A stretch of 40,168 bases of DNA, from the sequence record OZ035748.1, one strand, 5' to 3'. Shown here one piece after another: positions 2,665 to 36,019 of the stretch (its first letter is position 1; the number at the start of each line of letters is the position of its first letter). The translations under genes were made by a program, and so were the position numbers. A model generated the notes under the pieces. It was not told where the DNA came from. It saw nothing but the letters and a program-made list of their open reading frames with translations, and did not search any database. The stretch comes from Przondovirus KP32i192.

Positions 2665-2687
2665 AATTAGGGCACACTATAGGGAGA
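2665..2687 (+). promoter_or_regulatory. Phage RNAP promoter (phiOR-like, right end)
   Basis: AATTAGGGCACACTATAGGGAGA, full match to the window consensus; +1 G at 2682. Confidence 0.75.
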
Positions 2688-2828
2688 GACCCTTGAAGAC
2701 TTACTATAAGACAACTTAAAGATTCATTCATATAGTTATTCACTTTAAGTCTCCTTAAAGGTAGAGGGTAGTGATGATAATATCACCCTCTCACTACAAG
2801 ACACTAAGAGCCAACATAAGGAGGACCT

Positions 2829-2978
2829 ATGCGCTTATTGTTAACCTTACTGCGCCATAGGACTACTTGGCGATTTCTGCTGGTACTTGCTGGTGCCCTT
2901 GGGGCTTCACTGGTTACTCAGCAGCAACTCAGTGGACTGGAGACTCTCGTGTGCTCTCTACTCACTTGTAGCGATTAG
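2829..2978 (+). CDS. Small hydrophobic protein (gp19.5-like by position)
   Basis: 49-aa ORF with aaggagg RBS 8 nt upstream; hydrophobic; lies between terminase gene and genome end as gene 19.5 does in T7. Confidence 0.4.
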   Translation: MRLLLTLLRHRTTWRFLLVLAGALGASLVTQQQLSGLETLVCSLLTCSD

Positions 2979-3039
2979 GGTCTTCCTGACGCGCTAGGGA
3001 TTCCGTAGTGATGCTTATCAGCATACACCACTCCATCCC

Positions 3040-3440
3040 TCTATAGTCAATACTTAAAGTTAACCTTAGGTGATTCACTGGGTCTACCTACGGGTCTATG
3101 CACTGACCTGAGGACTACCTGAGGTTACCTTTAAGAATTTTACATAAAGTTCTGAGTGTACATCTCACAGTTTACACTTTTGGTCATCCCCCCCGGTACC
3201 CCTCCAGTTCACCCAAAGTAACCATGGGTACCCCCCTCTTTACCTTCAGTTTAACCTTGGGTGGTACCTTGGGAGTCCTTAGGTGATACTATATGTTGTG
3301 GTGTGGGTGACCTGAGGATACTATATGTTGATGTCTCTGTGTCCCTATCTGTTGGCCCTCTTTAAGTATCCACTGAGTACCACCTGAGGTTAGACCTGAG
3401 GTAATACCGGAGACCATATACCTTAGGTTAACCATGCGGC
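3040..3440. repeat. Array of short CCT(T/G)(A/G)GG heptamer repeats flanking the terminal-repeat region
   Basis: At least 9 copies of ccttagg / cctgagg / ccttggg, plus a 20-bp imperfect direct repeat (ccttaggtgatactatatgttg at 3277-3298, cctgaggatactatatgttg at 3311-3330); analogous to the short repeats near T7 genome ends. Confidence 0.5.
3163..3350. repeat. Putative direct terminal repeat (single collapsed copy) with predicted physical left end near 3163
   Basis: TCTCACAG at 3163-3170 matches the recalled T7 left-end sequence; TCTCTGTGTCCCTATCTGTT at about 3334-3353 matches the conserved block near the inner edge of the T7 terminal repeat; boundaries inferred. Confidence 0.35.
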
Positions 3441-3492
3441 CATCTGGTGAGTCATCACTATAGGGCTATTGGTGGTCATTGTCAATCAATCC

Positions 3493-3515
3493 TATTAGGA
3501 CACACTATAGGGAGA
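3493..3515 (+). promoter_or_regulatory. Phage RNAP promoter (phiOL-like, left end)
   Basis: TATTAGGACACACTATAGGGAGA; +1 G at 3510. Confidence 0.65.
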
Positions 3516-3594
3516 CACTTAAAGTATTACTTAGGGACCATCACCATAAAGATCACCATCACTATAGGTCTAACTAAAAGTTTAACTTTAAGTG

Positions 3595-3623
3595 TTGACA
3601 TTCAGATTCCGTTATGAGACATT
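3595..3623 (+). promoter_or_regulatory. Candidate host sigma70 early promoter (A1-like)
   Basis: -35 TTGACA (3595-3600), 17-bp spacer, weak -10 GACATT (3618-3623); position and flanks resemble T7 A1. Confidence 0.35.
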
Positions 3624-3726
3624 AGCAACCGTTGAGAGACACAACGCTACCAACCACTAGCATACTTCGAGTTATCTGGTTAGACTGATGGTCTCAAGTA
3701 GTCATCAACCGGACATACGAAAGTGG

Positions 3727-3755
3727 TTGACTCAACGATGAATAAGTAGTAAGAT
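3727..3755 (+). promoter_or_regulatory. Host sigma70 early promoter (A2-like)
   Basis: -35 TTGACT (3727-3732), 17-bp spacer, -10 TAAGAT (3750-3755); same hexamers as recalled T7 A2. Confidence 0.55.
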
Positions 3756-3854
3756 GCACCACAGATTCACGAAGTACCGCTAGGCAACTAGCATTGCTCT
3801 TTAACAATATGGATTAGTCAAGCTGATATGTACACCATGATAATAGTGTTTAAC

Positions 3855-3925
3855 TAGTGGTTACATTCAGGTCTCTGGCAAGGTACGTCCTGTCACCCTG
3901 AGAGTAGCCACAATGATAACCACTA
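3855..3925 (+). promoter_or_regulatory. Candidate long-range stem-loop in gene 0.3 leader (R0.3-like)
   Basis: TAGTGGTTA (3855-3863) is perfectly complementary to TAACCACTA (3917-3925), 9-bp stem enclosing 53 nt, immediately upstream of the gene 0.3 RBS. Confidence 0.3.
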
Positions 3926-3946
3926 ATCAACTGAAGGATATACATT

Positions 3947-4414
3947 ATGATTTTCACGAAAGAACCAGCCAACAAAGTATTCGTATTTGTTACTGCATAC
4001 CGTGGCCATGAGTCGCAGGAAGTAAACGAGAAGATGCTCAAGGGTCTCATTAAGACCATTCGCACCTATCCGGGAGCATACGGCAACATTCGTGATGAAC
4101 ATGTACAGGGCTGCTTTAAAGAAGCTGGTATGCCTGAGGCAACGCAAGAGCGCACGCTTAAAGTTGAGTGTACTGAGAAGCAAGCCGCAGAGTTGACGTG
4201 GCTGGCCTGTAAGACCTACTCGCAAGATGCTGTGCTGGTGGTGAACTCACAGACCCATACAGCCGCGCTATGGTCTATCACAAGCGTGGGAGAGTATCCG
4301 CAAGCATTTCCGATGCTCAAAGAGGATGCACTAGGTGGCACGCTGCAACAAGTGGACGCACCAAAGGGCGAATGCTATTCAAGCATCGACGGGCAATACT
4401 GGGAGGTGGTCTAA
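3947..4414 (+). CDS. SAM hydrolase/lyase (T3 gp0.3-like SAMase), anti-restriction
   Basis: 155-aa first early gene; N-terminus MIFTKEPA..VFVFV and overall collinearity with recalled T3 SAMase; not Ocr-like (not acidic). Confidence 0.7.
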   Translation: MIFTKEPANKVFVFVTAYRGHESQEVNEKMLKGLIKTIRTYPGAYGNIRDEHVQGCFKEAGMPEATQERTLKVECTEKQAAELTWLACKTYSQDAVLVVNSQTHTAALWSITSVGEYPQAFPMLKEDALGGTLQQVDAPKGECYSSIDGQYWEVV

Positions 4415-4560
4415 TGATTAATTATGGCCTCACTCAGGCAGACATTAGGCATTACCGCTGGTTGCTCTCACTAGGTAAACCGCACGACTACCTAATGATT
4501 CACCTAGCGCAAACCTACCGCACACGTAAGGTAATGTATGATAACCCTGTTCGTAATTAG
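4414..4560 (+). CDS. Hypothetical early protein (48 aa)
   Basis: ATG overlaps SAMase stop (TAATG); gggagg RBS 7 nt upstream; position of T7 genes 0.4-0.6. Confidence 0.4.
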   Translation: MINYGLTQADIRHYRWLLSLGKPHDYLMIHLAQTYRTRKVMYDNPVRN

Positions 4561-4735
4561 TGTGTACGCCATGATTGTCCTGTACTTTGTGCGGGACTTT
4601 CGTAAGGGTCTCAAGGTACACAAGGCATCATTCAGTTACATGAAGTGGGGCATACTGCCTCGCTTTACTGTACGGCTACCAAATGGCCGCTTTAAGGCTA
4701 ACAAGGTAGGTATTTTCTACATCGCAACCCATTGA
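4538..4735 (+). CDS. Hypothetical early small membrane protein (65 aa)
   Basis: ORF with aagg RBS; N-terminal hydrophobic segment ITLFVISVYAMIVLYFV. Confidence 0.4.
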   Translation: MITLFVISVYAMIVLYFVRDFRKGLKVHKASFSYMKWGILPRFTVRLPNGRFKANKVGIFYIATH

Positions 4736-4760
4736 CAAACCACCATAAGGAAACAACCTA

Positions 4761-5777: not shown

Positions 5778-5791
5778 CAAGGTGTATCTTA

Positions 5792-5813
5792 GGTGTCTCC
5801 CGCAAGAGGCACC
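5792..5813 (+). promoter_or_regulatory. RNA hairpin in gene 1 leader (candidate R1 processing site)
   Basis: GGTGTCTC ccgcaa GAGGCACC: 8-bp stem (one G-U), 6-nt loop, no following U-tract so not an intrinsic terminator. Confidence 0.3.
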
Positions 5814-5846
5814 GATAGATAAACTTTATTCACAAAGAGGCACACA

Positions 5847-8567
5847 ATGAACGCATTAAACATTGCACGTAATGACTTCTCAGAGATTGAACTGGCCGCT
5901 ATTCCGTACAACATCCTCAGCGAGCACTACGGGGACAAGCTGGCACGTGAGCAGTTAGCACTGGAGCATGAGGCGTACGAGCTGGGTGAGCAGCGTTTCC
6001 TGAAGATGTTAGAACGTCAGGTGAAAGCTGGAGAGTTCGCTGACAACGTGGCCGCTAAGCCGCTGGTCCTAACGTTGCACCCGCAGCTGACCAAGCGCAT
6101 TGACGATTGGAAGGAGGAACAAGCAAACGCTCGTGGTAAGAAGCCTCGCGCATACTACCCGATTAAGCACGGCGTGTCCTCAGAGCTGGCCCTCAGTATG
6201 GGCGCTGAGGTACTCAATGAGAAGCGCGGAGTGTCCAGTGAGGCAATCGCACTGCTGACCATTAAGGTCGTCTTAGGGACGCTCACAGACGCCTCCAAGG
6301 CAACCATCCAGCAGGTATCCTCTCAGTTAGGCAAGGCTCTTGAGGATGAGGCCCGCTTTGGTCGTATCCGTGAGCAGGAAGCCGCCTACTTCAAGAAGAA
6401 CGTAGCGGACCAGCTGGACAAGCGTGTAGGCCACGTGTACAAGAAGGCTTTCATGCAGGTCGTCGAGGCCGATATGATTTCCAAAGGGATGCTGGGTGGG
6501 GACAACTGGTCCAGCTGGAAAACTGACGAGCAGATGCATGTGGGGACCAAGCTGCTTGAGCTACTCATCGAGGGCACTGGTCTGGTGGAAATGACCAAGA
6601 ACAAGATGGCCGATGGCTCCGACGATGTGACCAGTATGCAGATGGTCCAGCTGGCTCCGGCCTTTGTGGAACTCCTGAGCAAACGAGCGGGAGCACTCGC
6701 AGGTATCAGCCCGATGCACCAACCATGCGTAGTCCCTCCGAAACCTTGGGTGGAGACCGTAGGCGGTGGCTACTGGTCAGTCGGTCGCCGCCCGCTGGCG
6801 CTGGTTCGTACCCACTCCAAGAAGGCACTGCGCCGCTACGCAGACGTGCACATGCCCGAGGTATACAAAGCGGTAAACCTCGCGCAAAACACGCCGTGGA
6901 AGGTGAACAAGAAGGTGCTGGCGGTAGTCAACGAGATTGTCAACTGGAAGCACTGCCCGGTTGCTGACGTCCCGGCGATTGAACGCGAAGAGTTACCACC
7001 ACGCCCGGACGATATCGACACCAACGAGGTGTCACGCAAGGCATGGCGCAAGGAGGCCGCAGCGGTCTACCGTAAGGACAAGGCCCGCCAGTCTCGCCGT
7101 TTGTCAATGGAGTTCATGGTCGCACAGGCCAACAAGTTCGCTAACCACAAGGCCATCTGGTTCCCGTACAACATGGACTGGCGCGGACGTGTGTACGCTG
7201 TGAGCATGTTCAACCCGCAGGGTAACGACATGACCAAGGGTATGCTGACGCTGGCCAAGGGTAAGCCAATCGGTCTCGACGGGTTCTACTGGCTGAAGAT
7301 TCACGGTGCAAACTGTGCAGGCGTCGACAAGGTTCCATTCCCTGAGCGCATCAAGTTCATCGAAGAGAACGAGGGTAACATTCTGGCGAGCGCAGCAGAC
7401 CCGCTGAATAACATTTGGTGGACACAGCAAGATTCACCGTTCTGTTTCTTGGCGTTCTGCTTTGAGTACGCAGGCGTTAAACATCATGGCCTGAATTACA
7501 ACTGCTCGCTGCCGCTGGCATTCGATGGGTCATGCTCTGGGATTCAGCACTTCAGCGCGATGCTCCGCGATTCCATCGGTGGTCGTGCGGTTAACCTGCT
7601 GCCTTCTGATACTGTGCAGGATATCTACAAGATTGTGGCCGACAAGGTTAACGAGGTGCTTCACCAGCACGCTGTCAACGGGTCTCAGACGGTGGTCGAG
7701 CAGATTGCTGATAAAGAGACTGGCGAGTTCCGCGAGAAAGTAACACTGGGTGAGTCCGTGCTGGCTGCTCAGTGGTTGCAATATGGCGTGACCCGTAAGG
7801 TGACTAAGCGTTCGGTCATGACGTTGGCGTACGGTTCCAAAGAGTTCGGCTTCCGCCAGCAAGTTCTGGAAGACACCATTCAGCCTGCTATTGACAATGG
7901 CGAGGGCTTGATGTTTACGCACCCTAACCAAGCGGCTGGCTACATGGCTAAGCTGATTTGGGACGCTGTGACCGTGACCGTAGTGGCCGCTGTCGAGGCA
8001 ATGAACTGGCTGAAGTCTGCCGCTAAGCTGCTGGCTGCTGAAGTCAAGGACAAGAAGACCAAAGAGGTGCTGCGTAAGCGCTGCGCAATCCACTGGGTAA
8101 CACCCGATGGCTTCCCGGTGTGGCAGGAGTACCGCAAGCAGAACCAAGCGCGCCTGAAGCTGGTCTTCCTCGGGCAGGCCAACGTCAAGATGACGTATAA
8201 CACTGGGAAGGACTCAGAGATTGATGCCCACAAGCAGGAATCCGGCATAGCTCCTAACTTTGTTCACTCACAGGACGGTAGTCACCTACGCATGACCGTA
8301 GTACACGCCAACGAGGTCTACGGGATTGACTCCTTCGCACTCATTCACGACTCCTTCGGGACCATTCCGGCTGACGCTGGGAATCTCTTTAAGGCAGTCC
8401 GTGAGACGATGGTCAAGACCTACGAGGACAACGATGTGATCGCTGACTTCTACGACCAGTTCGCTGACCAGCTGCACGAGTCTCAACTGGACAAGATGCC
8501 AGCTGTTCCGGCCAAAGGTGACCTGAATCTGCGAGACATCTTGAAGTCAGACTTCGCGTTTGCGTAA
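5847..8567 (+). CDS. Single-subunit DNA-dependent RNA polymerase (T7 gp1-like)
   Basis: 906-aa ORF; collinear with recalled T7 RNAP along the full length, including the active-site region (LPLAFDGSCSGIQHFSAMLRD) and C-terminal FAFA. Confidence 0.95.
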   Translation: MNALNIARNDFSEIELAAIPYNILSEHYGDKLAREQLALEHEAYELGEQRFLKMLERQVKAGEFADNVAAKPLVLTLHPQLTKRIDDWKEEQANARGKKPRAYYPIKHGVSSELALSMGAEVLNEKRGVSSEAIALLTIKVVLGTLTDASKATIQQVSSQLGKALEDEARFGRIREQEAAYFKKNVADQLDKRVGHVYKKAFMQVVEADMISKGMLGGDNWSSWKTDEQMHVGTKLLELLIEGTGLVEMTKNKMADGSDDVTSMQMVQLAPAFVELLSKRAGALAGISPMHQPCVVPPKPWVETVGGGYWSVGRRPLALVRTHSKKALRRYADVHMPEVYKAVNLAQNTPWKVNKKVLAVVNEIVNWKHCPVADVPAIEREELPPRPDDIDTNEVSRKAWRKEAAAVYRKDKARQSRRLSMEFMVAQANKFANHKAIWFPYNMDWRGRVYAVSMFNPQGNDMTKGMLTLAKGKPIGLDGFYWLKIHGANCAGVDKVPFPERIKFIEENEGNILASAADPLNNIWWTQQDSPFCFLAFCFEYAGVKHHGLNYNCSLPLAFDGSCSGIQHFSAMLRDSIGGRAVNLLPSDTVQDIYKIVADKVNEVLHQHAVNGSQTVVEQIADKETGEFREKVTLGESVLAAQWLQYGVTRKVTKRSVMTLAYGSKEFGFRQQVLEDTIQPAIDNGEGLMFTHPNQAAGYMAKLIWDAVTVTVVAAVEAMNWLKSAAKLLAAEVKDKKTKEVLRKRCAIHWVTPDGFPVWQEYRKQNQARLKLVFLGQANVKMTYNTGKDSEIDAHKQESGIAPNFVHSQDGSHLRMTVVHANEVYGIDSFALIHDSFGTIPADAGNLFKAVRETMVKTYEDNDVIADFYDQFADQLHESQLDKMPAVPAKGDLNLRDILKSDFAFA

Positions 8568-8577
8568 GGTCTCGGGC

Positions 8578-8600
8578 AATTAGGGCACACTATAGGGAAC
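8578..8600 (+). promoter_or_regulatory. Phage RNAP promoter (phi1.1A-like)
   Basis: AATTAGGGCACACTATAGGGAAC; transcript starts with a 10-bp hairpin GGGAACCTTCG/CGAGGGTTCC. Confidence 0.7.
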
Positions 8601-8660
8601 CTTCGAATGACCGAGGGTTCCATTACTTAAAGTCTTAACTTAAAGAATACTTAAAGAGGC
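8595..8660 (+). other. Candidate primary replication origin region (promoter plus AT-rich tacttaaag repeats)
   Basis: 5' hairpin followed by three copies of (t/a)acttaaag at 8624, 8637, 8648; in T7 the primary origin is the promoter/AT-rich region just downstream of gene 1. Confidence 0.3.
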
Positions 8661-8665
8661 ACACC

Positions 8666-9226
8666 ATGACTTACTCAATCGTTGTAACCATCTTGTTAAT
8701 CGTATTAATCATCCTGTTAGTAAGGGCCGTCACACGACTCGGTGCCTGCGAGTACGCCCTTGAGAAGCAAGCCAAGAGCAACGAGGAGTACACAGACGGC
8801 TTGCACGATAAGGTCTGCCGCCTGTCTGACGATAAGGTATCACTCAATAAGCAGGTGCGGTGGTTAGAGAGCGAGCTTGAACACGAGAAGCAGAAGGTAC
8901 GCGATGTGAACGAACTACGGGAACGCCAGCGGGACCGCATGAAGTTCCTCCGCAAGTCCCTCAAGGAAGCACAAGATGAGCTGATGATGGTCTCCGACCT
9001 GATTCACGTTAAGTTCACCGCTGTGTTGCCGGACGGTACCCACTCCAAGACGCTCTTTAAGTTAGGACTTGGGCCGTGTGGCCTGCACGTTAAGTCCCTC
9101 CGCTGGACCGAGCTGGATGACCGCTATCTGATAGACCAGCTGTGCACCAACGGTGAGCGCAAGCAGTTCGTTTATTACAAGAGCGAAGTAGTGGGACGCA
9201 TCGAGTTCCGCCACGGTAAGATTTAA
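8666..9226 (+). CDS. Hypothetical protein, N-terminal TM helix plus coiled coil (no T7 counterpart; gene 1.05 position)
   Basis: 186-aa ORF with aagagg RBS; hydrophobic N-terminus IVVTILLIVLIILLV followed by charged heptad-rich region; no similarity to T7 proteins I can recall. Confidence 0.6.
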   Translation: MTYSIVVTILLIVLIILLVRAVTRLGACEYALEKQAKSNEEYTDGLHDKVCRLSDDKVSLNKQVRWLESELEHEKQKVRDVNELRERQRDRMKFLRKSLKEAQDELMMVSDLIHVKFTAVLPDGTHSKTLFKLGLGPCGLHVKSLRWTELDDRYLIDQLCTNGERKQFVYYKSEVVGRIEFRHGKI

Positions 9227-9247
9227 TTAGGACCCACTATCAGGAAC
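9225..9247 (+). promoter_or_regulatory. Degenerate phage promoter-like element (phi1.1B position)
   Basis: AATTAGGACCCACTATCAGGAAC: upstream -17 to -2 matches consensus but -1/+1 is C/A instead of A/G. Confidence 0.35.
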
Positions 9248-9248
9248 A

Positions 9249-9285
9249 TACTCAAGGTCATCACGTTTGGTGGCCTTCATGAATG
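9249..9285 (+). promoter_or_regulatory. RNase III-type processing hairpin (R1.1-like)
   Basis: tactcAAGGTCATCACgtttGGTGGCCTTcatgaatg; shares ctcaaggtca / tggcctt motifs with sites at 288, 9773, 16538. Confidence 0.55.
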
Positions 9286-9315
9286 TCCCTTAATATCACA
9301 ATCAGGAGCAACACC

Positions 9316-9492
9316 ATGTATCAGAACACAATCAACTTTGAGCGCACCCGTGAACGTCAGCAGACAGAGGGTTACATCCCTAAGGGCCGCAAGCTGAACA
9401 AGACGAAGCGCGGTGGTGGGGTGAAGGGTTCCTTCCGTAACGCTAAGGGTGACAGCGTTGTTAACCAAGAGAAATACTTCGTGGGAGCGTAA
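9316..9492 (+). CDS. gp1.1-like small basic protein
   Basis: 58-aa product contains KGRKLNKTKR as in recalled T7 gp1.1; aggag RBS 7 nt upstream. Confidence 0.55.
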   Translation: MYQNTINFERTRERQQTEGYIPKGRKLNKTKRGGGVKGSFRNAKGDSVVNQEKYFVGA

Positions 9493-9495
9493 CAA

Positions 9496-9753
9496 ATGGC
9501 TACGGAAAAAAGATGGCTTTTCGATGGGAGCACCTCACAATGGTCTCGTTTAGGAGCAGCGGAGCGTAGACTACTGGATACGACAGGACTGCACGTGGTC
9601 ATGCTTGACGACCCATTCACTAACACCGTGCTGTTCAACGTATTCGAGCCACGCGGGTCACTTCTAATAAGTAAGCGGTTCAGCCACTGGTCGATTGACT
9701 CAGCGTCAGACTGGCTGGCAAAACTCGCAGCTGACTACTCAAGCTGGCAGTAA
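9496..9753 (+). CDS. gp1.2-like protein (possible host dGTPase inhibitor) by size and position
   Basis: 85-aa ORF, same length and position as T7 gp1.2; sequence similarity weak. Confidence 0.45.
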   Translation: MATEKRWLFDGSTSQWSRLGAAERRLLDTTGLHVVMLDDPFTNTVLFNVFEPRGSLLISKRFSHWSIDSASDWLAKLAADYSSWQ

Positions 9754-9774
9754 TTAGGACACACTATAGGCAGA
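9752..9774 (+). promoter_or_regulatory. Phage RNAP promoter (phi1.3-like)
   Basis: AATTAGGACACACTATAGGCAGA; +1 G at 9769. Confidence 0.65.
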
Positions 9775-9853: not shown

Positions 9854-10918
9854 ATGATGAACATTAAGACTAATCCATTTAAGGCTGTATCATTCGTTCG
9901 CTCTGCTATCGAGAAGGCGCTGGAGACTTCCGGTTACCTCATCGCAGACACTAAGCACGATGGTGTGCGCGGTAACATCTGCGTAGACAACACGGCCAAC
10001 GCAGCGTGGCTCAGCCGGGTCTCCAAGACCATTCCGGCCCTTGAGCATCTCAACGGTTTCGACCAGCGCTGGAATAAGTTACTGAAAGATGACCGCTGGA
10101 TTTTCCCGGATGGCTTCATGCTTGATGGCGAACTCATGGTCAAAGGCGTGGACTTCAACACCGGGTCTGGTCTACTGCGCACCAAGTACCTGAAAGAAAA
10201 GAACATGAAGTTTGACACCCGCGCCCTTCTTGACTTCGATAAGAAGCTGTGGGGGACCAAAACTCCATTCCGCCTACAGACGGGCAAACTCAAAGTTGTC
10301 CTCTATGATATCATTCCGCTTGACATTATCGAGTCCGGTGATGACTACAACGTGATGACCCTCCTCCGCCTTGAGCACGTCAAGGTAGCCTTACCAGTCC
10401 TGCAAGACCACTTCCCTGAAGTCGAGTGGTGCCTCTCGGAGTCCCATGAAGTTTACGACATGGACGAACTCGATGCGCTTTACCGACAGAAACGCGAAGA
10501 AGGTCACGAAGGTCTGGTGGTTAAGGACCCTCAGGGCATCTACAAGCGCGGTAAGAAGTCCGGCTGGTGGAAACTGAAGCCAGAGAACGAGGCTGACGGT
10601 GTCGTTGTGGGACTCAACTGGGGAACTCCCGGTCTTGCCAACGAGGGCAAGGTGATTGGCTTCGAGGTACTCCTTGAGTCTGGTCGCGTGGTATCCGCCA
10701 ACAACATCTCTCAGGCACTTATGGAGGAGTTTACCTCCGCATGGCTCAACGCTAACACCGAGGACTTCACAGGAACAACAGCGCCAAACCCAGTGAACCC
10801 TTACGAAGGCTGGGCGTGCCAAATCAAGTACATGGAGGAAACTCCAGATGGCTCTCTGCGTCACCCGTCGTTCGACAAATGGCGTGGCACTGAGGCTGAC
10901 CCGACCATAAAGATGTAA
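9854..10918 (+). CDS. ATP-dependent DNA ligase (T7 gp1.3-like)
   Basis: 354-aa ORF; N-terminus MMNIKTNPFKAVSFV and adenylation motif KYDGVRG match recalled T7 ligase. Confidence 0.92.
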   Translation: MMNIKTNPFKAVSFVRSAIEKALETSGYLIADTKHDGVRGNICVDNTANAAWLSRVSKTIPALEHLNGFDQRWNKLLKDDRWIFPDGFMLDGELMVKGVDFNTGSGLLRTKYLKEKNMKFDTRALLDFDKKLWGTKTPFRLQTGKLKVVLYDIIPLDIIESGDDYNVMTLLRLEHVKVALPVLQDHFPEVEWCLSESHEVYDMDELDALYRQKREEGHEGLVVKDPQGIYKRGKKSGWWKLKPENEADGVVVGLNWGTPGLANEGKVIGFEVLLESGRVVSANNISQALMEEFTSAWLNANTEDFTGTTAPNPVNPYEGWACQIKYMEETPDGSLRHPSFDKWRGTEADPTIKM

Positions 10919-10939
10919 TTAGGACCCACTATAGGAGAC
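10917..10939 (+). promoter_or_regulatory. Phage RNAP promoter (phi1.5-like)
   Basis: AATTAGGACCCACTATAGGAGAC. Confidence 0.65.
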
Positions 10940-11922: not shown

Positions 11923-12072
11923 ATGCAAAAATTCGTCGTAACGGTCGAGACAGCTAACGCATCGTATGAACTCCCGGTACACGCTGGGTCTCTTGAGGAG
12001 GCCCTAGAAGTTGCCGAGGCGGAGTACGAAGAGTTAGGCCAAGTGACTCGGGTACGCCCGGATAGTCATTAG
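11923..12072 (+). CDS. Host RNA polymerase inhibitor (T7 gp2-like)
   Basis: 49-aa ORF; aaggag RBS; YELPVHAGSLEEALEVAEAEY...VTRVRP parallels recalled T7 gp2 ([21 protein letters not shown]...VTRVRP). Confidence 0.65.
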   Translation: MQKFVVTVETANASYELPVHAGSLEEALEVAEAEYEELGQVTRVRPDSH

Positions 12073-12089
12073 GACACACTATAGGGACA
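12067..12089 (+). promoter_or_regulatory. Phage RNAP promoter (phi2.5-like)
   Basis: CATTAGGACACACTATAGGGACA. Confidence 0.65.
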
Positions 12090-12827: not shown

Positions 12828-13276
12828 TGGCAGGCTATGGGGCCAAAGGGATTCGGAAGGTGGGTGCCTTCCGGTCTGGCCTTGAGGACAAGGTGTCCAA
12901 GCAGTTAGAAGCAAAGGGCGTCACGTTCGACTACGAATTGTGGCGCATCCCTTACGTTATTCCTGCGAGTGACCACCTTTACACTCCAGACTTCTTGTTG
13001 CCCAACGGTATCTTTGTGGAGACTAAGGGTCTCTGGGAAGCCGAGGACCGCAAGAAGCACCTACTGATTCGTGAGCAGCACCCGGAGCTAGACATCCGGT
13101 TAGTGTTCTCTTCGAGTCGCACTAAGATTTACAAAGGGTCACCAACCAGTTACGCTGAGTGGTGTGAGAAGCATAACATCTTGTTTGCCGACAAATTGAT
13201 TCCCGTAGACTGGCTGAAGGAGCCGAAGCGTGATGTACCGTTCGGCAAGTTCAAACAGAAGAAAGGAGCAAAGTAG
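12827..13276 (+). CDS. Endonuclease I, Holliday junction resolvase (T7 gp3-like)
   Basis: 149-aa ORF; N-terminus MAGYGAKGIRKVGAFRSGLEDKVSKQLE identical to recalled T7 gp3. Confidence 0.92.
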   Translation: MAGYGAKGIRKVGAFRSGLEDKVSKQLEAKGVTFDYELWRIPYVIPASDHLYTPDFLLPNGIFVETKGLWEAEDRKKHLLIREQHPELDIRLVFSSSRTKIYKGSPTSYAEWCEKHNILFADKLIPVDWLKEPKRDVPFGKFKQKKGAK

Positions 13277-13734: not shown

Positions 13735-13842
13735 ATGGTTACGCAGGCTCTCATCATATTCGGATTGCCAATCCTGATAGTTGGTACGCTTTACTGTACC
13801 AACAAGGAGTGGTTCAGCGACGGACAAGAGTAGATAATTAGG
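13735..13842 (+). CDS. Tiny hydrophobic ORF (35 aa)
   Basis: Hand-translated; ATG overlaps lysozyme stop; no clear RBS. Confidence 0.2.
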
Positions 13843-13859
13843 GCACACTACAGGGAGAC
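13837..13859 (+). promoter_or_regulatory. Phage RNAP promoter (phi3.8-like), variant -2 C
   Basis: AATTAGGGCACACTACAGGGAGA; transcript begins with hairpin GGGAGAC/GTTTCCC. Confidence 0.55.
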
Positions 13860-13983: not shown

Positions 13984-14096
13984 ATGAACAAGGTATTTGA
14001 CGTATTCTTCATGTTTGTCCTGACAGTTGCGGTCATTACCATCGCTGTACTGGTGGGTACGGTTGCAATCGGTGTATTACACGAGGTAGGTTTAAT

Positions 14097-14100
<4 letters not shown>
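13984..14100 (+). CDS. Small membrane protein (38 aa)
   Basis: MNKVFDVFFMFVLTVAVITIAVLVGTVAIGVLHEVGLI; single predicted TM. Confidence 0.3.
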
Positions 14101-15943
<1,843 letters not shown>

Positions 15944-19143: not shown

Positions 19144-19446
19144 ATGGCTATTACCAAGCGTTTCAAGGTTACTTTCGAGGTGACCAGCATTATCGATAGT
19201 GAGTCCGAGAAGAACCTCGGCGAGACCGTTCTACGTGTTGCACGTATGGTTGCCAATGGCGAGAAGGTGGACAACTTCAAACTGGGCTTCCTTGAGGCAG
19301 CGCTCAGCGGTGGACCAGACGAAGCCGCAGCATACTGCATCCGACACGGTCTGCGCTCAATGGTCAAAGAGGCACACGACGACCTTTCGTTTAACGAGAA
19401 GAAACTTATGCGCTTCTCTCCGGCTATCGTGAGGGTAACCAAGTGA
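19144..19446 (+). CDS. gp5.5-like protein (T7 gp5.5 binds host H-NS)
   Basis: 100-aa ORF; MA.TK.FKV.F.VT and similar length to recalled T7 gp5.5. Confidence 0.6.
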   Translation: MAITKRFKVTFEVTSIIDSESEKNLGETVLRVARMVANGEKVDNFKLGFLEAALSGGPDEAAAYCIRHGLRSMVKEAHDDLSFNEKKLMRFSPAIVRVTK

Positions 19447-20554: not shown

Positions 20555-20646
20555 TTCTCATCGTACTGACCATGGGCTTAGTCGCTCGTGGTCTCTGGAT
20601 GTTAGCCTTGATTATCAAGCAGATAGTCGAGCATAAACCAGAGTGA
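20536..20646 (+). CDS. Tiny hydrophobic ORF (gp6.3-like by position)
   Basis: 36-aa hand-translated ORF overlapping gene 6 end. Confidence 0.25.
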   Translation: MATGQLILIVLTMGLVARGLWMLALIIKQIVEHKPE

Positions 20647-20647
20647 T

Positions 20648-20697
20648 AAACTCATGGGCACAATTAGGACCCACTATAGGGAAGTGCCCATTATGAT
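20648..20697 (+). promoter_or_regulatory. RNase III-type hairpin enclosing a promoter (R6.5-like)
   Basis: ATGGGCAC (20654-20661) pairs with GTGCCCAT (20684-20691); the promoter sits in the loop; flanks actcatgg / ccattatgatt resemble the other sites. Confidence 0.4.
20662..20684 (+). promoter_or_regulatory. Phage RNAP promoter (phi6.5-like)
   Basis: AATTAGGACCCACTATAGGGAAG. Confidence 0.65.
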
Positions 20698-20731
20698 TAT
20701 TACTTAAAGATTACTTAAAGAGGAGACTCAA

Positions 20732-21486: not shown

Positions 21487-23094
21487 ATGGCAGAAGTTAA
21501 ACTCGAAGGCTTCGCAGAGGAGGGAGCCAAGGCGGTATACGACCGTCTGAAGAATGACCGACAGCCTTACGAGACACGAGCAGAGTCCTGTGCGCAGTAC
21601 ACGATTCCCTCACTGTTCCCTAAGGACTCCGATAACGCATCAACCGATTACACGACTCCGTGGCAATCCGTAGGTGCTCGCGGCCTGAACAACCTAGCGT
21701 CCAAGCTGATGCTGGCCCTGTTCCCGATGCAGTCATGGATGAAGTTGACCATTAGTGAATACGAAGCGAAGAACCTTCTGGGTGACGCTGAGGGTCTCGC
21801 TAAGGTCGATGAGGGCCTCTCAATGGTAGAGCGCATCATCATGAACTACATCGAGTCCAACAGTTATCGAGTGACTCTCTTTGAGTGCTTGAAGCAACTG
21901 TGTGTGGCCGGGAACGCGCTGCTGTACTTACCGGAGCCTGAGGGTTATACCCCGATGAAGCTCTATCGACTGAACTCGTATGTGGTCCAGCGAGACGCTT
22001 TCGGTAACGTACTCCAGATTGTCACCCTCGACAAGATTGCGTTCAACGCTCTCCCTGAGGATGTCCGCAGCCAAGTGGAAGCAGCCCAAGGTGAGCAGAA
22101 GGAAGACGCTGAGATTGACGTCTACACCCACGTGTATCTGAACGAAGCCGGGGATGGCTACTCGAAGTACGAAGAGGTCGCCGAAGCGGTGGTTCCGGGA
22201 AGTGAGGCTGAGTACCCGCTCGAAGAGTGTCCGTACATTCCGGTCCGCATGGTCCGCATCGACGGTGAATCCTACGGTCGTTCCTACGTGGAAGAGTATC
22301 TGGGCGACCTCAAGTCCCTAGAGAACCTCCAAGAGTCCATCGTGAAGATGGCGATGATTACCGCGAAGGTCATCGGTCTGGTAGACCCGGCAGGCATCAC
22401 TCAGGTCCGCCGACTAACGGCAGCACAGTCTGGTGCGTTCGTACCGGGCCGTAAGCAGGACATTGAGTTCCTCCAGCTGGAGAAGTCCGGTGACTTTACC
22501 GTAGCGAAGAACGTAAGCGACACCATTGAGGCTCGCCTCTCGTATGCCTTTATGCTCAACAGTGCGGTACAACGTACAGGTGAGCGAGTCACAGCTGAAG
22601 AGATTCGGTATGTGGCATCAGAGCTGGAAGATACCCTTGGCGGTGTCTACTCGATTCTCTCGCAGGAACTCCAGCTGCCTCTGGTAAGAGTGCTCTTGAA
22701 GCAACTACAAGCCACGCAGCAAATCCCGGAGTTACCTAAAGAGGCCGTCGAGCCAACCATCAGCACTGGCCTTGAGGCTATCGGACGTGGCCAGGACCTT
22801 GACAAGCTGGAGCGGTGTATTGCCGCATGGTCAGCACTTAAGGCACTCGAAGGTGATGACGACCTCAACTTGGCTAACCTCAAGTTACGTATCGCTAACG
22901 CTATCGGACTCGACACAGCTGGTATGCTTCTCACTCAGGAGCAGAAGAACGCTCTTATGGCACAGCAAGGCGCTCAGATTGCTACACAGCAAGGGGCCGC
23001 AGCGCTGGGTCAAGGGATGGCCGCACAGGCCACTGCAAGTCCTGAAGCTATGGCAGCAGCGGCTGATTCAGTGGGTATGCAACCGGGCATGTAA
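21487..23094 (+). CDS. Portal (head-tail connector) protein (T7 gp8-like)
   Basis: 535-aa ORF; long near-identical stretches to recalled T7 gp8. Confidence 0.95.
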   Translation: MAEVKLEGFAEEGAKAVYDRLKNDRQPYETRAESCAQYTIPSLFPKDSDNASTDYTTPWQSVGARGLNNLASKLMLALFPMQSWMKLTISEYEAKNLLGDAEGLAKVDEGLSMVERIIMNYIESNSYRVTLFECLKQLCVAGNALLYLPEPEGYTPMKLYRLNSYVVQRDAFGNVLQIVTLDKIAFNALPEDVRSQVEAAQGEQKEDAEIDVYTHVYLNEAGDGYSKYEEVAEAVVPGSEAEYPLEECPYIPVRMVRIDGESYGRSYVEEYLGDLKSLENLQESIVKMAMITAKVIGLVDPAGITQVRRLTAAQSGAFVPGRKQDIEFLQLEKSGDFTVAKNVSDTIEARLSYAFMLNSAVQRTGERVTAEEIRYVASELEDTLGGVYSILSQELQLPLVRVLLKQLQATQQIPELPKEAVEPTISTGLEAIGRGQDLDKLERCIAAWSALKALEGDDDLNLANLKLRIANAIGLDTAGMLLTQEQKNALMAQQGAQIATQQGAAALGQGMAAQATASPEAMAAAADSVGMQPGM

Positions 23095-23115
23095 TTAGGG
23101 CACACTATAGGGAGA
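23093..23115 (+). promoter_or_regulatory. Phage RNAP promoter (phi9-like)
   Basis: AATTAGGGCACACTATAGGGAGA. Confidence 0.75.
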
Positions 23116-24153: not shown

Positions 24154-24176
24154 AATTAGGGCACACTATAGGGAGA
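24154..24176 (+). promoter_or_regulatory. Phage RNAP promoter (phi10-like)
   Basis: AATTAGGGCACACTATAGGGAGA, then a long leader with strong RBS aaggag. Confidence 0.75.
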
Positions 24177-24331
24177 ACGCACAATCCGACAAGGAGCGAA
24201 GGCACCTCCCTTCGAGTTACACAATGAGTATCACCTCGTTTCAAGTAGTACCTCAACAGCTTGGCAACGATAGGCCCGTTTGGTCAGCGTAATGACTAAT
24301 TCTATTCTTAAACAACATAAGGAGATTCAAC

Positions 24332-25641: not shown

Positions 25642-25650
25642 ACTAAGCCA

Positions 25651-25692
25651 AACCCCTTGGGGACCACTCACGGTCTCTGAGGGGTTTTTTCG
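25651..25692 (+). terminator. Tphi-like intrinsic terminator downstream of capsid gene
   Basis: CCCCTTGGGGACC actcac GGTCTCTGAGGGG followed by TTTTTT; closely resembles the recalled T7 Tphi. Confidence 0.7.
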
Positions 25693-25707
25693 TTAGGAGC
25701 TTACATT

Positions 25708-28709: not shown

Positions 28710-28732
28710 AATTAGGGCACACTATAGGGAGA
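28710..28732 (+). promoter_or_regulatory. Phage RNAP promoter (phi13-like)
   Basis: AATTAGGGCACACTATAGGGAGA. Confidence 0.75.
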
Positions 28733-28757: not shown

Positions 28758-29168
28758 ATGCACATAAGAAACACTGTAAGTAATGACTTCGAGTTATTCA
28801 TCCCGGCCTACCATGACGTACTTGAGGCACAGGCCATGGGTATAGAACCATCGTTCCCAGCGGTTACTGAGTGTGTCACGTTAGACCACGATGGTTTTCC
28901 TTTGGCTATAGGTGGACATTGCGGAGACCAGTGCTGGTTCGTCACGAGTGACCAAGTGTGGAGACTCGACAGGGCTGGCAAGCTGGAGTTCCGTGAGAGA
29001 ATCATGGAGTACAGGGACATGTTATTAAATGTTTACCCATCCCTGTGGAACTTCGTGTGGGTCGGTAATGGTCCCCACAAGCGGTTCCTTAAGTCCATCG
29101 GTGCTGTATTCCACGAGGAGTACACTCAGGATGGGAAGTTCCAACTGTTCACCATAACGAGGAGGTAA
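28758..29168 (+). CDS. Internal virion protein A (T7 gp13-like)
   Basis: 136-aa ORF at the conserved position between gp12 and gp14; weak sequence recall. Confidence 0.7.
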   Translation: MHIRNTVSNDFELFIPAYHDVLEAQAMGIEPSFPAVTECVTLDHDGFPLAIGGHCGDQCWFVTSDQVWRLDRAGKLEFRERIMEYRDMLLNVYPSLWNFVWVGNGPHKRFLKSIGAVFHEEYTQDGKFQLFTITRR

Positions 29169-29170
29169 CT

Positions 29171-32016: not shown

Positions 32017-32032
32017 CCATTAAGGAGACAAC

Positions 32033-35000
32033 ATGAGCTACGACAAGTCCAAACCTAGCGACTACGATGGTATCTTTCAGAAGGCAGCAGACTCTCACGG
32101 AGTTAGCTATGACCTCCTGCGTAAGCTATCGTTTAACGAATCATCCTTCAACCCTAAGGCCGTCTCTAAGACTGGCCCTAAGGGCATCATGCAGTTCACC
32201 CGCAACACGGCCCGAGCGATGGGCCTTAACGTGACCGATGGTGACGACGATGGGCGATACAACCCAGAGTTAGCCATTGACGCTGGCGCTAAACTGCTTG
32301 CGAGCCTCGTTAAGAAGTACAATGGGGATGAGCTGAAAGCAGCCCTAGCGTACAACCAAGGGGAAGGCCCATCGGGTGCCCCTCAGCTCCAAGCGTACGA
32401 CAAGGGAGACTTCGGGTCTATCTCTGAGGAAGGCCGTAACTACATGCGCAAGCTGCTGGATGTGGCCAAGAGTCCGAACTCAGGCGCACTGGAGGCGTTC
32501 GGTGGTATCACCCCAAAGGGTAAAGGGATTCCCGCAGAGGATGCCTTCAAGGGCATCGCTAAGGCTGGCAAGGTAGGTACTGAGCTGCCGGAGTCCCATG
32601 GGTTCGACGTTGAAGGTGTAGCACAGGAAGCACCCAACACTCCGTACGCTAAGGACTTCTGGGAGAAGACCGGGACGACTCTCGACGAGTATAACTCTCG
32701 GTCAACCTTCTTCGGTTTCGGTGATGCTGCTGAGGCTCAGATTCAGAACTCCACATTAGGTGTGGCCTTCCGTGCTGCGCGTGCTGATGATGGGTACGAT
32801 GTGTTCAAGGACACGTTGACCCCGACTCGCTGGAACTCCTATGTCCCGTCTAAGGAGGACTTACAGAAGCTGCGAGACTCCGGGTTACCTCCGAGTTACT
32901 ACGGTGTGGTGACTGGTGGCGACGGCGAGAACTGGGATGCGCTCATCAAGCTGGCCAAGGATAACTTCGAGGCTGACCAACGGGCCGCTGAGGCTGGTAC
33001 TGGGGCGAAACTCGCCGCTGGTATCGTTGGTGCTGGTGTAGACCCACTCAGTTATGTACCGCTGGTCGGTGTGGCCGGGAAGGGACTCAAGGTGGTCAAT
33101 AAGGCCCTGCGAGTAGGTGCACAGGCTGGAGCGCTCAGTGTTGCCTCTGAAGGTATCCGTACGTCAGTCGCTGGTGGCGAAGCTCACTACGCTGATGCGG
33201 CACTTGGTGGGTTACTGTTCGGTGCTGGCATGTCTGCCCTTAGTGACGCTGTGGCCGCTGGCATTCGTAAGGCTCGTGGAGTGGACTCCGTAAATGAGTT
33301 CGCTGGTCCAGCACTCCGCATGGAAGCACGAGAGACTGCCATCAACACTGGCGGTCACGACACCTCGACGCTACCTCCAGAGAACTTCTCGTTCGAGCAG
33401 GACCACAGAGGTGTTCCGTTCGCCGACCACCCGACCGAAGAGGGCGCAGTGGTTCTGGCCAATGGTTCCATCCTGAGCGATACCAACCCGCTTAACCCAA
33501 GGACTCAACGTGACTTCGCAGAGATTGACCCAGAGCGTGCAGCTCCCGGTATCAAACTCGGTGGGTTCACTGAGATCGGCCTGAAGACCTTAGGGTCCAA
33601 GGATGCTGGTGTTCGTGCAATTGCTCAGGACCTCGTTCGCTCGCCTACAGGGATGCAATCAGGGTCTAGCGGTAAGTTCGGTGCCACCGCTTCGGATATC
33701 CACGAGCGTCTCCACGCGACTGACCAGCGGATGTATAACCAGCTGTATGACGCTGTTGACCGTGCCATGAAGGACCCAGAGTTCTCCGTGGGCGAGCAGA
33801 AGATGTCACGCAGAGCCATCCGTCAGGAAGTCTACAAGCGTGCCGCCTTGGCGATTGAGCGTCCAGAGTTACAGGCTGATTTGACCAAAGGTGAACGTGA
33901 GGTGATGGACCTGCTGAAAGAGCACTTCGACACCAAGCGTGAACTGATGGAACAGCCGGGTATCTTCGGTAACGCTAACGCCGTGAGCATCTTCCCCGGT
34001 AGTCGACACAAGGGTACCTACGTTCCTAACGTGTACGACAGGGGCGCTAAGGAACTGATGATGCAGAAGCTGGGTGGACCTGAAGGACTCCAACAGGCAA
34101 TCGCTCAGAGCTGGCTCACCAGTTACCGAGTGCGGCCTGAGGTCAAGGCACGTGTCGACGAGTACCTGATGGAACTTAACGGCTACAAGTCGGTAGACCA
34201 AGTGACACCTGAGGTGGTCCAGAAGCACGCCATGGACAAGGCTTACGGTATCAGTCACACAGAGGACTTCACAGCGTCCAGCGTCATTGACGACAACATC
34301 ACAGGTCTGGTCGGTATCGAGAACAACTCGTTCCTTGAAGCCCGTAACATGTTCGACAGCGACCTCCCGGTCACCTTGCCGGACGGGTCAACCTTCAGTG
34401 TAAACGACCTGAGGGACTTCGACATGGCACGGATTATCCCAGCGTACGACCGTCGAGTTAACGGTGATATCTCCATCATGGGCGGCAGCGGTAAGACCAC
34501 GAAGCAGCTCAAGGACGAAATCATGGCGCTGGACAAGAAGGCCGAACGCAAGGGACAACTGAAGGGTGAAGTGGAAGCACTGAAGGACACCGTTAAGATT
34601 CTCACTGGACGTGCTCGTCGTAACAACGATACAGCCTTTGAGACCGCTATGCGCACCCTGAATGACCTAGCGTTCTTCGCTAAGAACTTCTACATGGGTC
34701 CGCAGAACCTCACAGAGATTGCTGGGATGTTGGCCAAGGGTAACGTTAAGGCGATGCTCCACGGCATCCCAACGTTGCGTGACCTAGCCACCAGAACCTC
34801 TCCGGTGTCCGGTAGTGAACTCCGTGAACTCCATGGGGCGCTGTTCGGTAAGGAACTCGACCAGTTAATCCGTCCGGGGCGTGAGGATATCGTGCAGCGA
34901 ATCCGTGAGGCTTCCGATACCAGTGGGGCCATGGCGTCAGTCATTGGTACCATTAAGTTTGGCACTCAGGAGTTGTCAGCGCGCTCTCCTTGGACCAAGA

Positions 35001-35998
35001 TGCTGAACGGTACGGCTAACTACATTCTGGACACTGCCCGTCAGGGTGTGCTAGGTGATGTGGCTGGTGCGGCCCTAGGCGGCAAGGGTTCCAAGTTTGG
35101 CAAAGAGAACTTCCTCAAAGCTGCCTCTATCAGTCCTGAGCAGTGGAAGGGAATCAAGCAACTCTTTGTCGACCACGCGACTCGGGACGCTAACGGCCAG
35201 TTCACCATCAAGGACAAGAAGGCTTTCAGTCAGGACCCGAGAGCGATGGACCTGTGGCGTCTTGCTGATAAGGTTGCAGACGAGACCATGCTGCGACCTC
35301 ATAAGGTATCCCAGCAGGATTCCAAGGCGTACGGTGCTGGCGTCAAGATGGCTATGCAGTTCAAGAACTTCACCATCAAGTCACTCAACGCCAAGTTCAT
35401 TCGGTCCTTCTACGAGGGCTACAAGAACAACCGCGCTATCGACATGGCACTGACCCACATCCTGTCGCTTGGTATCGCCGGGACTTACTTTGCGATGCAG
35501 GCCCATGTGAAGGCTTACGGCCTCCAAGAGTCTCAGCGTAAGGACTACCTGAAGAAAGCCCTGAACCCTACCATGCTGGGCTACGCAGCGTTGACTCGAA
35601 GTTCCCACACTGGTGCCCCGCTGTCCATCGCCTCGATGATTGCTGGTGCCGCTGGGTTCCAAGACGCCAACATGCTGCGCTCCACCATCCTACCTAAGGA
35701 GGAACAGTTCCAGAAGAAAGACGGAGCGTCCAAAGGTCGAGCCGAGTCGAGCAACCTTGCAGGCAACTTGGGGTCTCAGGTCCCGGCTCTGGGTTACGTA
35801 GGGAACGTCATTGCTACCGCCAAGAACGCTTATGGTGTTGCTACAGCACCTAACAAGCCGACTGAGCGTGACTATATGACTGGCCTGATGAACTCCACCA
35901 AGGAGCTTGTTCCAAACGACCCGCTGACCCAGCAGCTCATCATGAAAATCTATGAGGCTAACGGGGTAACCATCAAGCAACAGCCGAAGCCTAACTAA
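32033..35998 (+). CDS. Internal virion protein D with N-terminal lytic transglycosylase domain (T7 gp16-like)
   Basis: 1321-aa ORF; N-terminal SLT-like motif (FNESSFNP...GPKGIMQF); size matches T7 gp16 (1318 aa). Confidence 0.9.
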   Translation: MSYDKSKPSDYDGIFQKAADSHGVSYDLLRKLSFNESSFNPKAVSKTGPKGIMQFTRNTARAMGLNVTDGDDDGRYNPELAIDAGAKLLASLVKKYNGDELKAALAYNQGEGPSGAPQLQAYDKGDFGSISEEGRNYMRKLLDVAKSPNSGALEAFGGITPKGKGIPAEDAFKGIAKAGKVGTELPESHGFDVEGVAQEAPNTPYAKDFWEKTGTTLDEYNSRSTFFGFGDAAEAQIQNSTLGVAFRAARADDGYDVFKDTLTPTRWNSYVPSKEDLQKLRDSGLPPSYYGVVTGGDGENWDALIKLAKDNFEADQRAAEAGTGAKLAAGIVGAGVDPLSYVPLVGVAGKGLKVVNKALRVGAQAGALSVASEGIRTSVAGGEAHYADAALGGLLFGAGMSALSDAVAAGIRKARGVDSVNEFAGPALRMEARETAINTGGHDTSTLPPENFSFEQDHRGVPFADHPTEEGAVVLANGSILSDTNPLNPRTQRDFAEIDPERAAPGIKLGGFTEIGLKTLGSKDAGVRAIAQDLVRSPTGMQSGSSGKFGATASDIHERLHATDQRMYNQLYDAVDRAMKDPEFSVGEQKMSRRAIRQEVYKRAALAIERPELQADLTKGEREVMDLLKEHFDTKRELMEQPGIFGNANAVSIFPGSRHKGTYVPNVYDRGAKELMMQKLGGPEGLQQAIAQSWLTSYRVRPEVKARVDEYLMELNGYKSVDQVTPEVVQKHAMDKAYGISHTEDFTASSVIDDNITGLVGIENNSFLEARNMFDSDLPVTLPDGSTFSVNDLRDFDMARIIPAYDRRVNGDISIMGGSGKTTKQLKDEIMALDKKAERKGQLKGEVEALKDTVKILTGRARRNNDTAFETAMRTLNDLAFFAKNFYMGPQNLTEIAGMLAKGNVKAMLHGIPTLRDLATRTSPVSGSELRELHGALFGKELDQLIRPGREDIVQRIREASDTSGAMASVIGTIKFGTQELSARSPWTKMLNGTANYILDTARQGVLGDVAGAALGGKGSKFGKENFLKAASISPEQWKGIKQLFVDHATRDANGQFTIKDKKAFSQDPRAMDLWRLADKVADETMLRPHKVSQQDSKAYGAGVKMAMQFKNFTIKSLNAKFIRSFYEGYKNNRAIDMALTHILSLGIAGTYFAMQAHVKAYGLQESQRKDYLKKALNPTMLGYAALTRSSHTGAPLSIASMIAGAAGFQDANMLRSTILPKEEQFQKKDGASKGRAESSNLAGNLGSQVPALGYVGNVIATAKNAYGVATAPNKPTERDYMTGLMNSTKELVPNDPLTQQLIMKIYEANGVTIKQQPKPN

Positions 35999-36019
35999 TT
36001 AGGACACACTATAGGGAGA
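35997..36019 (+). promoter_or_regulatory. Phage RNAP promoter (phi17-like)
   Basis: AATTAGGACACACTATAGGGAGA. Confidence 0.75.

Follow-up and report, generated by a model that had tools for sequence, protein, structure and literature searches.

Introduction

In the GenBank record of Klebsiella phage K11 (EU734173 / NC_011043), 13 phage promoters are annotated, namely phiOL, phi1.05, phi1.1, phi1.3, phi1.6, phi2.5, a gene-4 promoter, phi6.5, phi9, phi10, phi13, phi17 and phiOR. The promoters for K11 RNA polymerase (RNAP) are credited to Dietz 1990 and Kyung/Han 2002 in the passages of PMC11617373 and PMC13580328 that refer to these works. Here we analyse the counterparts of this promoter set in Przondovirus KP32i192 (sequence record OZ035748.1), the 40,168 nucleotides of which are called the window in the following. 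A previous sequence-only reading of this DNA had reported thirteen copies of a K11-type promoter, distinct from those of T7, T3 and SP6, in the region 2665-36019, and had proposed that they are recognised by the RNAP encoded at 5847-8567. According to our analysis, the thirteen sites almost certainly represent the complete promoter set for the phage-encoded RNAP (gene 1) of a K11/KP32-like Klebsiella podophage.

Functional data are available for two other isolates of the same genus, KP32 and IME321. The KP32 RNAP was tested in vivo with GFP on the promoters AATTAGGGCACACTATAG, AATTAGGACACACTATAG and AATTAGGACCCACTATAG, and the transcription start was mapped to a G by template-switch reverse transcription (PMC13580328). 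The tested promoters comprise the same three core variants as found in the window (GGGCAC, GGACAC and GGACCC). The best KP32 promoter in vivo was GGAAGTAATTAGGACACACTATAGGCAGACTCAAG (PKP32_2), with GFP driven from the AATTAGGACACACTATAGGCAGA core (PMC13580328); its 23-bp core and 6 downstream bases are identical to the window copy at 9752, while there is a single difference in the six bases flanking it upstream. The IME321 enzyme, named 'KpnP', uses CAATTAGGGCACACTATAGGGAAC with AATTAGGGCACACTATAGGGA as minimal promoter, and its +1 G was determined by 5' deep sequencing (PMC12272871). The sequence CAATTAGGGCACACTATAGGGAAC is identical to the window copy at 8578, the preceding C included. The K11/KP32-type promoter set is already annotated and experimentally characterised, and the window represents another isolate of the same genus.

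The thirteen promoters and their counterparts in related phages

Scanning the whole window on both strands with a position weight matrix (PWM), which was built from the 12 strong sites, resulted in 13 sites on the + strand between 2665 and 36019 with scores of 24-41 bits; no further or antisense copy above 8 bits was found on either strand, which bears out the number and range given by the sequence-only reading. An exact search with the degenerate 17-mer of that reading returned 9 sites, compared to 0.00 expected from dinucleotide shuffles. With up to three mismatches permitted, the 23-mer returned 10 sites (0.00 expected) and the loose 17-mer all 13 (0.46 expected), and all of these 17-mer and 23-mer matches are situated on the + strand.

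The window sites correspond one-to-one to the annotated K11 promoters by their gene-order position, and ten of the 13 are identical over 23 bp. The sites, all on the + strand, start with the phiOR equivalent (2665-2687; AATTAGGGCACACTATAGGGAGA), which is located between gene 19 and gene 19.5, ahead of the terminal repeat, and the phiOL equivalent (3493-3515; TATTAGGACACACTATAGGGAGA, identical to KP32 phiOL) at the genome left end. They are followed by phi1.05 (8578-8600; AATTAGGGCACACTATAGGGAAC) and phi1.1 (9225-9247; AATTAGGACCCACTATCAGGAAC, the weakest match), both identical to their K11 namesakes, phi1.3 (9752-9774; AATTAGGACACACTATAGGCAGA) before the DNA ligase gene, phi1.6 (10917-10939; AATTAGGACCCACTATAGGAGAC), phi2.5 (12067-12089; CATTAGGACACACTATAGGGACA) before the SSB gene, and phi4, the equivalent of phi3.8 (13836-13858; AATTAGGGCACACTACAGGGAGA), 360 nt upstream of the primase/helicase gene. 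The downstream part of the genome contains phi6.5 (20662-20684; AATTAGGACCCACTATAGGGAAG), phi9 (23093-23115), phi10 (24154-24176), situated 161 nt before the major capsid gene, phi13 (28710-28732) and phi17 (35997-36019; AATTAGGACACACTATAGGGAGA). The three promoters that differ from K11 do so by 1-2 bases at -17, -10 or -8: phiOR has GGGCAC in the window versus GGACCC in K11 (at 40503 there), a difference at -10 and -8, whereas phiOL with T at -17 and phi4 with A at -17 deviate from K11 at the outermost position.

The 23-bp consensus of the window (-17 to +6) is AATTAGGGCACACTATAGGGAGA, with G or A tolerated at -10 and A or C at -8. At -12 to -8 the copies read GGGCA (6 copies), GGACA (4) or GGACC (3), i.e. 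A replaces G at -10 in seven of the 13 copies and C occurs at -8 in three. The pentamers GGCAC, GACAC and GACCC, which the sequence-only reading had assigned to -12 to -8, actually occupy -11 to -7; its statement that the region differs from the CGACT of T7 is confirmed. The motif AATTAGG(G/A)C(A/C)CACTATA, said to be shared by all copies, is present exactly in nine of them, while those at 3493 (T at -17), 12067 (C at -17), 13836 (C at -2) and 9225 (C at -1) deviate from it. Likewise, the proposed GGGAGA-type start is exact at +1 to +6 in seven of the 13 copies, and the other six deviate. Overall, variation among the copies is concentrated at -17, -10, -8 and +3 to +6, with single-copy changes at -2, -1 and +1.

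All sites are oriented like the genes and placed at gene boundaries. Each begins not more than 80 nt past the stop codon of the upstream gene or overlaps it, except phiOL, which has no upstream gene, and the predicted 5' untranslated regions downstream of the sites comprise 31-437 nt. At five promoters the TAA stop codon of the upstream gene is supplied by the promoter's own 5' end, for example at phi9 and phi17, where the 5' AA finishes the stop codons of genes 8 and 16, respectively; phi2.5 represents a sixth overlap, with the end of gene 2.

When the same PWM was applied to relatives, 13 sites were obtained in K11, 13 in phage phi1_146053 and 14 in KP32, the latter consisting of the 13 counterparts and one weak extra site. 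Matching promoters across the four genomes differ only at -17, -10, -8 and +5. Moreover, promoter-specific deviations are kept in all four, such as -1C/+1A in phi1.1, -2C in phi4, +3C in phi1.3, GGAGAC in phi1.6 and GGGAAG in phi6.5. The extra KP32 site (12856-12878; AATTAACCCACACTATTGGGAAC) scores 16 bits and reads AACCC at -12 to -8 as in T3 promoters; with this PWM, none of the other three genomes (the window, K11 and phi1_146053) has a counterpart above threshold.

In addition to the consensus AATTAGGGCACACTATAGGGAGA, K11 has the Tphi terminator and the concatemer-junction motif in common with the window. As the window phage is an ordinary K11-like phage with the usual transcription programme, annotations for its 13 promoters, for Tphi and for the junction site can be taken over from the K11 record. 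Beyond correct annotation, the significance of the promoter set is slight; the polymerase-promoter pair of the K11/KP32 class is a practical orthogonal system for in vitro transcription, which is already characterised and in use.

The RNA polymerase and its specificity residues

The product of gene 1 (5847-8567, + strand; 906 amino acids) is a single-subunit RNAP that matches the Pfam models RNA_pol (PF00940) with 372 bits and RPOL_N (PF14700) with 75 bits, both above the curated cut-offs, and the equivalents of the catalytic residues D537, K631, Y639 and D812 are all conserved. Its protein identity amounts to 99% with K11 gp1, 76% with T3, 75% with T7 and 33% with SP6. The specificity loop YRKQNQARLKLVFLGQANVKMTYNTGKDSEID is identical to that of K11. 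An enzyme differing from K11 RNAP in a promoter-reading element is ruled out, since all 11 substitutions relative to K11 gp1 lie outside the specificity loop, the AT-rich recognition loop and the intercalating hairpin. From these similarities the RNAP at 5847-8567 is expected to recognise the whole set, as the sequence-only reading had proposed.

The positions 746, 748, 756 and 758 of T7 RNAP make base-specific contacts, the structural basis of which is summarised in PMC11880802. At these positions the window RNAP and K11 have R/K/N/K, T7 has R/N/R/Q, T3 R/D/R/Q and SP6 R/R/K/S; the residues K771, N779 and K781 of the window enzyme correspond to T7 positions 748, 756 and 758. A comparison of the loop with those of T7, T3 and K11, suggested in the earlier reading, thus gave identity with K11 and differences from T7, T3 and SP6 at 748/756/758. 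In a study from 2025, the T7 RNAP variant N748K/R756N/Q758K ('KNK'), whose specificity residues are the same three as in the window RNAP, was found to be active on a GGGCC promoter (its positions 6-10, i.e. -12 to -8) with an orthogonality of more than 200-fold towards other variant pairs (PMC11880802). This result links the loop residues K/N/K directly to GG(G/A)C(A/C) at -12 to -8. The pentamer GGGCC itself occurs in phi1_146053 at phiOR and phi10, whereas the window has GGGCA, GGACA and GGACC. KNK is an engineered enzyme, made by transplanting these residues into T7 RNAP, and outside the pentamer its promoter is T7 sequence. Taken together, the comparison of the window with other phages and the published mutagenesis place K11-class specificity in K/N/K at the T7-equivalent positions 748/756/758, pairing with GG(G/A)C(A/C).

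Apart from the promoter-reading elements, the window RNAP has an N-terminal insertion of approximately 20 amino acids (residues ~109-128, window 6171-6230), which T7, T3 and SP6 lack. The KP32 paper (PMC13580328) reports the same clade-specific insertion in RNAPs of Klebsiella phages. It holds four of the 11 differences from K11 gp1 and hence evolves fastest within an enzyme that is otherwise 99% conserved.

Predicted transcription layout

Two host sigma-70 promoters are situated at 3595-3631 and 3727-3763, upstream of genes 0.3 to 1, with 97% and 95% identity to those annotated in K11. By analogy to the T7 paradigm, the early region including gene 1 would be transcribed by the host RNAP from these sigma-70 promoters (~3595-3763). 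The phage RNAP would then bind each 23-bp promoter as duplex DNA, the AT-rich recognition loop reading approximately -17 to -13 and the specificity loop the major groove at approximately -12 to -7, before the TATA at -4 to -1 is melted and transcription starts at the +1 G. Adjacent to phiOL, a leftward near-consensus sigma-70-type promoter (3457-3485, - strand; TTGACA, 17 nt, TATAGT; 11/12) abuts the site at 3493. A leftward promoter, A0, is annotated in both T7 and T3, and the window sequence is reminiscent of it; no such element is listed for this place in the K11 record.

The promoters phi1.05 to phi4, which deviate from the consensus, appear class II-like and would drive the DNA-metabolism genes. 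Their class III counterparts phi9, phi10, phi13 and phi17, which match the consensus or are at most one base off, would drive the virion genes, and phi6.5 also precedes late genes, yet is 3 positions off consensus. Perfect matches had been claimed before genes 9, 10, 13 and 17. This holds for the first three, with 23 of 23 positions of the majority consensus at 23093, 24154 and 28710, whereas the gene 17 copy is one base off (A at -10). Nor are perfect copies restricted to late structural genes, because the copy at 2665 also reaches 23/23 and this phiOR, after gene 19, precedes no structural gene.

Downstream of gene 10, a Tphi-type terminator (25650-25697, + strand) consists of a 16-pair hairpin (25650-25687) and a T run. 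The corresponding K11 stretch 22784-22845, in which the terminator is annotated at 22794-22831, shows 100% identity to it. The hairpin in the window would attenuate read-through after gene 10. A further RNA hairpin at 20641-20705 encloses the entire phi6.5, with GGGCAC...GUGCCC as its inner stem (-22.2 kcal/mol, z = -4.08; none of 200 shuffles was as stable). In T3, the annotated RNase III site R6.5 encloses phi6.5 likewise, and because of this similarity the hairpin probably acts as a processing site in read-through transcripts.

Promoter strength and alternative explanations

Some points weigh against the assumption that all thirteen sites serve the phage RNAP as described. Initiation at each +1 of this genome is assumed from the relatives, and the contacts of K771, N779 and K781 with individual bases are deduced from T7 structures and the KNK transplant. 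The activity of the copy at 9225, with its C at -1, A at +1 and score of 24 bits, could be very low. Furthermore, the single published in vivo comparison, from KP32, ranks a phi1.3-type promoter with GGACAC/GGCAGA above a promoter with GGGCAC, i.e. a consensus-type core. The last point also concerns the earlier claim that copy strength correlates with position: the match to the consensus does correlate with position, as it does in T7, but the part on strength is unsupported, and the KP32 GGGCAC promoter was not the top one in vivo.

Among the alternatives, the best surviving one complements rather than replaces this explanation. It is conceivable, albeit rather unlikely, that phiOR and phiOL serve mainly DNA replication and concatemer processing and not mRNA synthesis. 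Such a role has been proposed for T7 phiOL and phiOR. The two window copies flank the single collapsed copy of the terminal repeat (3163-3345) and the concatemer-junction motif CTATCTGTT, which occurs once (3345-3353, + strand), at the end of that repeat copy and downstream of phiOR. The motif is also found in K11 (180-188) and T7, and would represent a concatemer-junction pause motif as in T7; T7, T3 and K11 are annotated with the same order of elements. Moreover, the only gene that follows phiOR is the very small gene 19.5, and a distance of 437 nt, which includes the host promoters, separates phiOL from gene 0.3. Both copies are, however, perfect or near-perfect RNAP promoters, so that the molecular event would still be transcription initiation.

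The second alternative, which we regard as improbable, considers the weakest copy (phi1.1 at 9225) as a decayed, non-functional relic and the functional set as one of 12 promoters. Its PWM score of 24.3 bits is the lowest, compared to at least 29 for the others, it has C at -1 and A at +1, and it is situated only 630 bp downstream of phi1.05. On the other hand, K11, KP32 and phi1_146053 all have the same -1C/+1A at this site despite variation at -10 and -8, which suggests selection. The K11 annotators list the site as phi1.1, and T3 class II promoters annotated as functional show the same CTAAC-A-GGAG pattern.

Still more doubtful is the possibility that the choices between G and A at -10 and between A and C at -8 tune promoter strength or timing, for example via sensitivity to the gp3.5 lysozyme. 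If this were true, the 'imperfect' GGACAC might be the strongest in vivo, as the single GFP comparison in KP32 hints, and strength in this clade would then be only poorly predicted by the match to the consensus. The switching at -10 and -8 between sister phages, however, suggests neutral drift within the tolerance of the polymerase, which counts against tuning.

A very improbable alternative views the repeats mainly as conserved anchors for homologous recombination, i.e. for module exchange between related phages, with promoter activity being secondary. It could be based on the segment 13725-13836, which does not align to K11 or KP32 and ends where phi4 starts, and on the KP32-unaligned segment 10735-10915, which ends at phi1.6 (10917). 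Only two such coincidences were seen, though, and all 13 sites are co-oriented with the genes, located at gene boundaries and fit the specificity residues of the polymerase; furthermore, promoter function has been demonstrated in close relatives. Promoters of the gene 1 RNAP remain the explanation that we prefer for the thirteen sites.

Genome identity and relatives

The window phage belongs, as judged from its alignments to phi1_146053 (97% of the window length, 94.8% identity) and K11 (90% of the length, 92.9%, or about 93%, with differing receptor-binding genes), to the genus Przondovirus and is a K11/KP32-like Klebsiella podophage. The DNA of the RNAP gene has several hundred Klebsiella phage records at 90-96% identity, with phage K11 at 95.0%. 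When translated K11 genes are mapped to the window, their order is retained from gene 0.3 through gene 19.5. Because gene 17.5 wraps across the window ends, with the window beginning just past its break, the window is a circularly permuted complete genome.

The exact consensus 23-mer was found in approximately 30 IMG/VR contigs, nearly all of them of about 40 kb. The phi10 region matched 383 phage records, 368 of which are named Klebsiella, and at least one annotates a promoter there. The phi10 leader (24177-24331, 161-nt) is mosaic among relatives: a 216-bp query consisting of promoter and leader was covered to at least 80% in only 52 of the 383 matching phage records, and many match only a sub-block of 50-130 bp.

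Several genes and modules differ between the relatives. In gp17, conservation is confined to the N-terminal T7-tail-fibre domain. The C-terminal part of this protein and the next open reading frame (ORF; 38311-39978, 555 amino acids, without Pfam match) form a region (36695-39981) which is unrelated to K11/KP32 and common to phi1_146053; they presumably represent capsule-specific receptor-binding or depolymerase modules. Gene 0.3 (3945-4594) codes for a member of the S-adenosylmethionine lyase family (PF23780), like its K11 counterpart (85% identity), whereas phi1_146053, otherwise the closest relative, has an ocr-like anti-restriction gene at this position and does not align there. As judged from this comparison, the anti-restriction module is swapped between the two phages. 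The proteins gp5.5 (19144-19443) and gp13 (28758-29165) are only 35% and 56% identical to K11, compared to more than 95% for their neighbours, and still match T7-family Pfam models. Two small hydrophobic ORFs (13984-14100, 38 amino acids; 14097-14216, 39 amino acids) occupy the 360-nt gap between phi4 and gene 4A. Small hypothetical ORFs are annotated at the same place in phi1_146053, and 13993-14212, a part of this stretch, does not align to K11.

Comparison with the T7, T3 and SP6 classes

Over -17 to -1 the window sites show 3-6 mismatches to the T7 consensus, 5-6 to that of T3 and 3-5 to that of SP6. The best scores of the heterologous PWMs in the window were 24.5 bits for T7, 13.1 for T3 and 19.4 for SP6, compared to about 40 bits when each matrix is applied to the genome of its own phage (own-site scores of 40 bits for T7 and 37.5 for SP6). 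These matrices matched, weakly, only the same 13 sites, and no hidden T7-, T3- or SP6-type promoter was detected in the window; in the T3 genome, by comparison, an unused T7-like promoter is annotated. Both CGACT at -12 to -8 and the residues N/R/Q, which characterise the T7 class, are absent from the window set. The window set also falls outside the T3 class, which is defined by ACCCT at -12 to -8, CTAAA at -5 to -1 and D at 748, where the window RNAP has K. The SP6 class, with GGTGA at -12 to -8, a GAAG start and an R/K/S loop, does not correspond to the window set either.

The assumption of a new specificity class, unlike K11 as well as T7, T3 and SP6, could refer to the A at -10 in seven and the C at -8 in three of the 13 copies, but it has practically no chance of being correct and is already refuted by the K11 promoter match and the loop identity, as G/A and A/C alternate in the same way among the promoters annotated in K11 itself, ten of the 13 sites are identical and the specificity loop is 100% identical. 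The assignment to the K11 type in the sequence-only reading is substantiated by the match to the K11 record, the PWM scores and the loop residues K/N/K. The specificity itself is less noteworthy than implied there, since it is the textbook fourth class.

Among the three classical sets, SP6 (ATTTAGGTGACACTATAGAAG) is the closest in the upstream half, with TTAGG and ACACTATAG common to the window; it differs by TG at -10/-9 versus (G/A)C and by a GAAG start versus GGGA. T7 shares with the window the 23-bp architecture (-17 to +6), the initiation half CACTATAGGGAGA and the Tphi and concatemer-junction elements. The logic of the promoter map is the same as well, since consensus copies are placed ahead of genes 9, 10, 13 and 17 as well as at phiOR, and deviating copies ahead of the DNA-metabolism genes; in T7, phi6.5, 9, 10, 13, 17 and OR are identical consensus copies, whereas the earlier promoters deviate. 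The T7 set has CGACT instead of GG(G/A)C(A/C) at -12 to -8, is also unlike the window set at -17 and -15, and comprises 17 promoters versus 13, and the T7 enzyme has N/R/Q versus K/N/K and is without the 20-amino-acid N-terminal insertion. The window set is the known fourth (K11) specificity class, distinct from T7, T3 and SP6.

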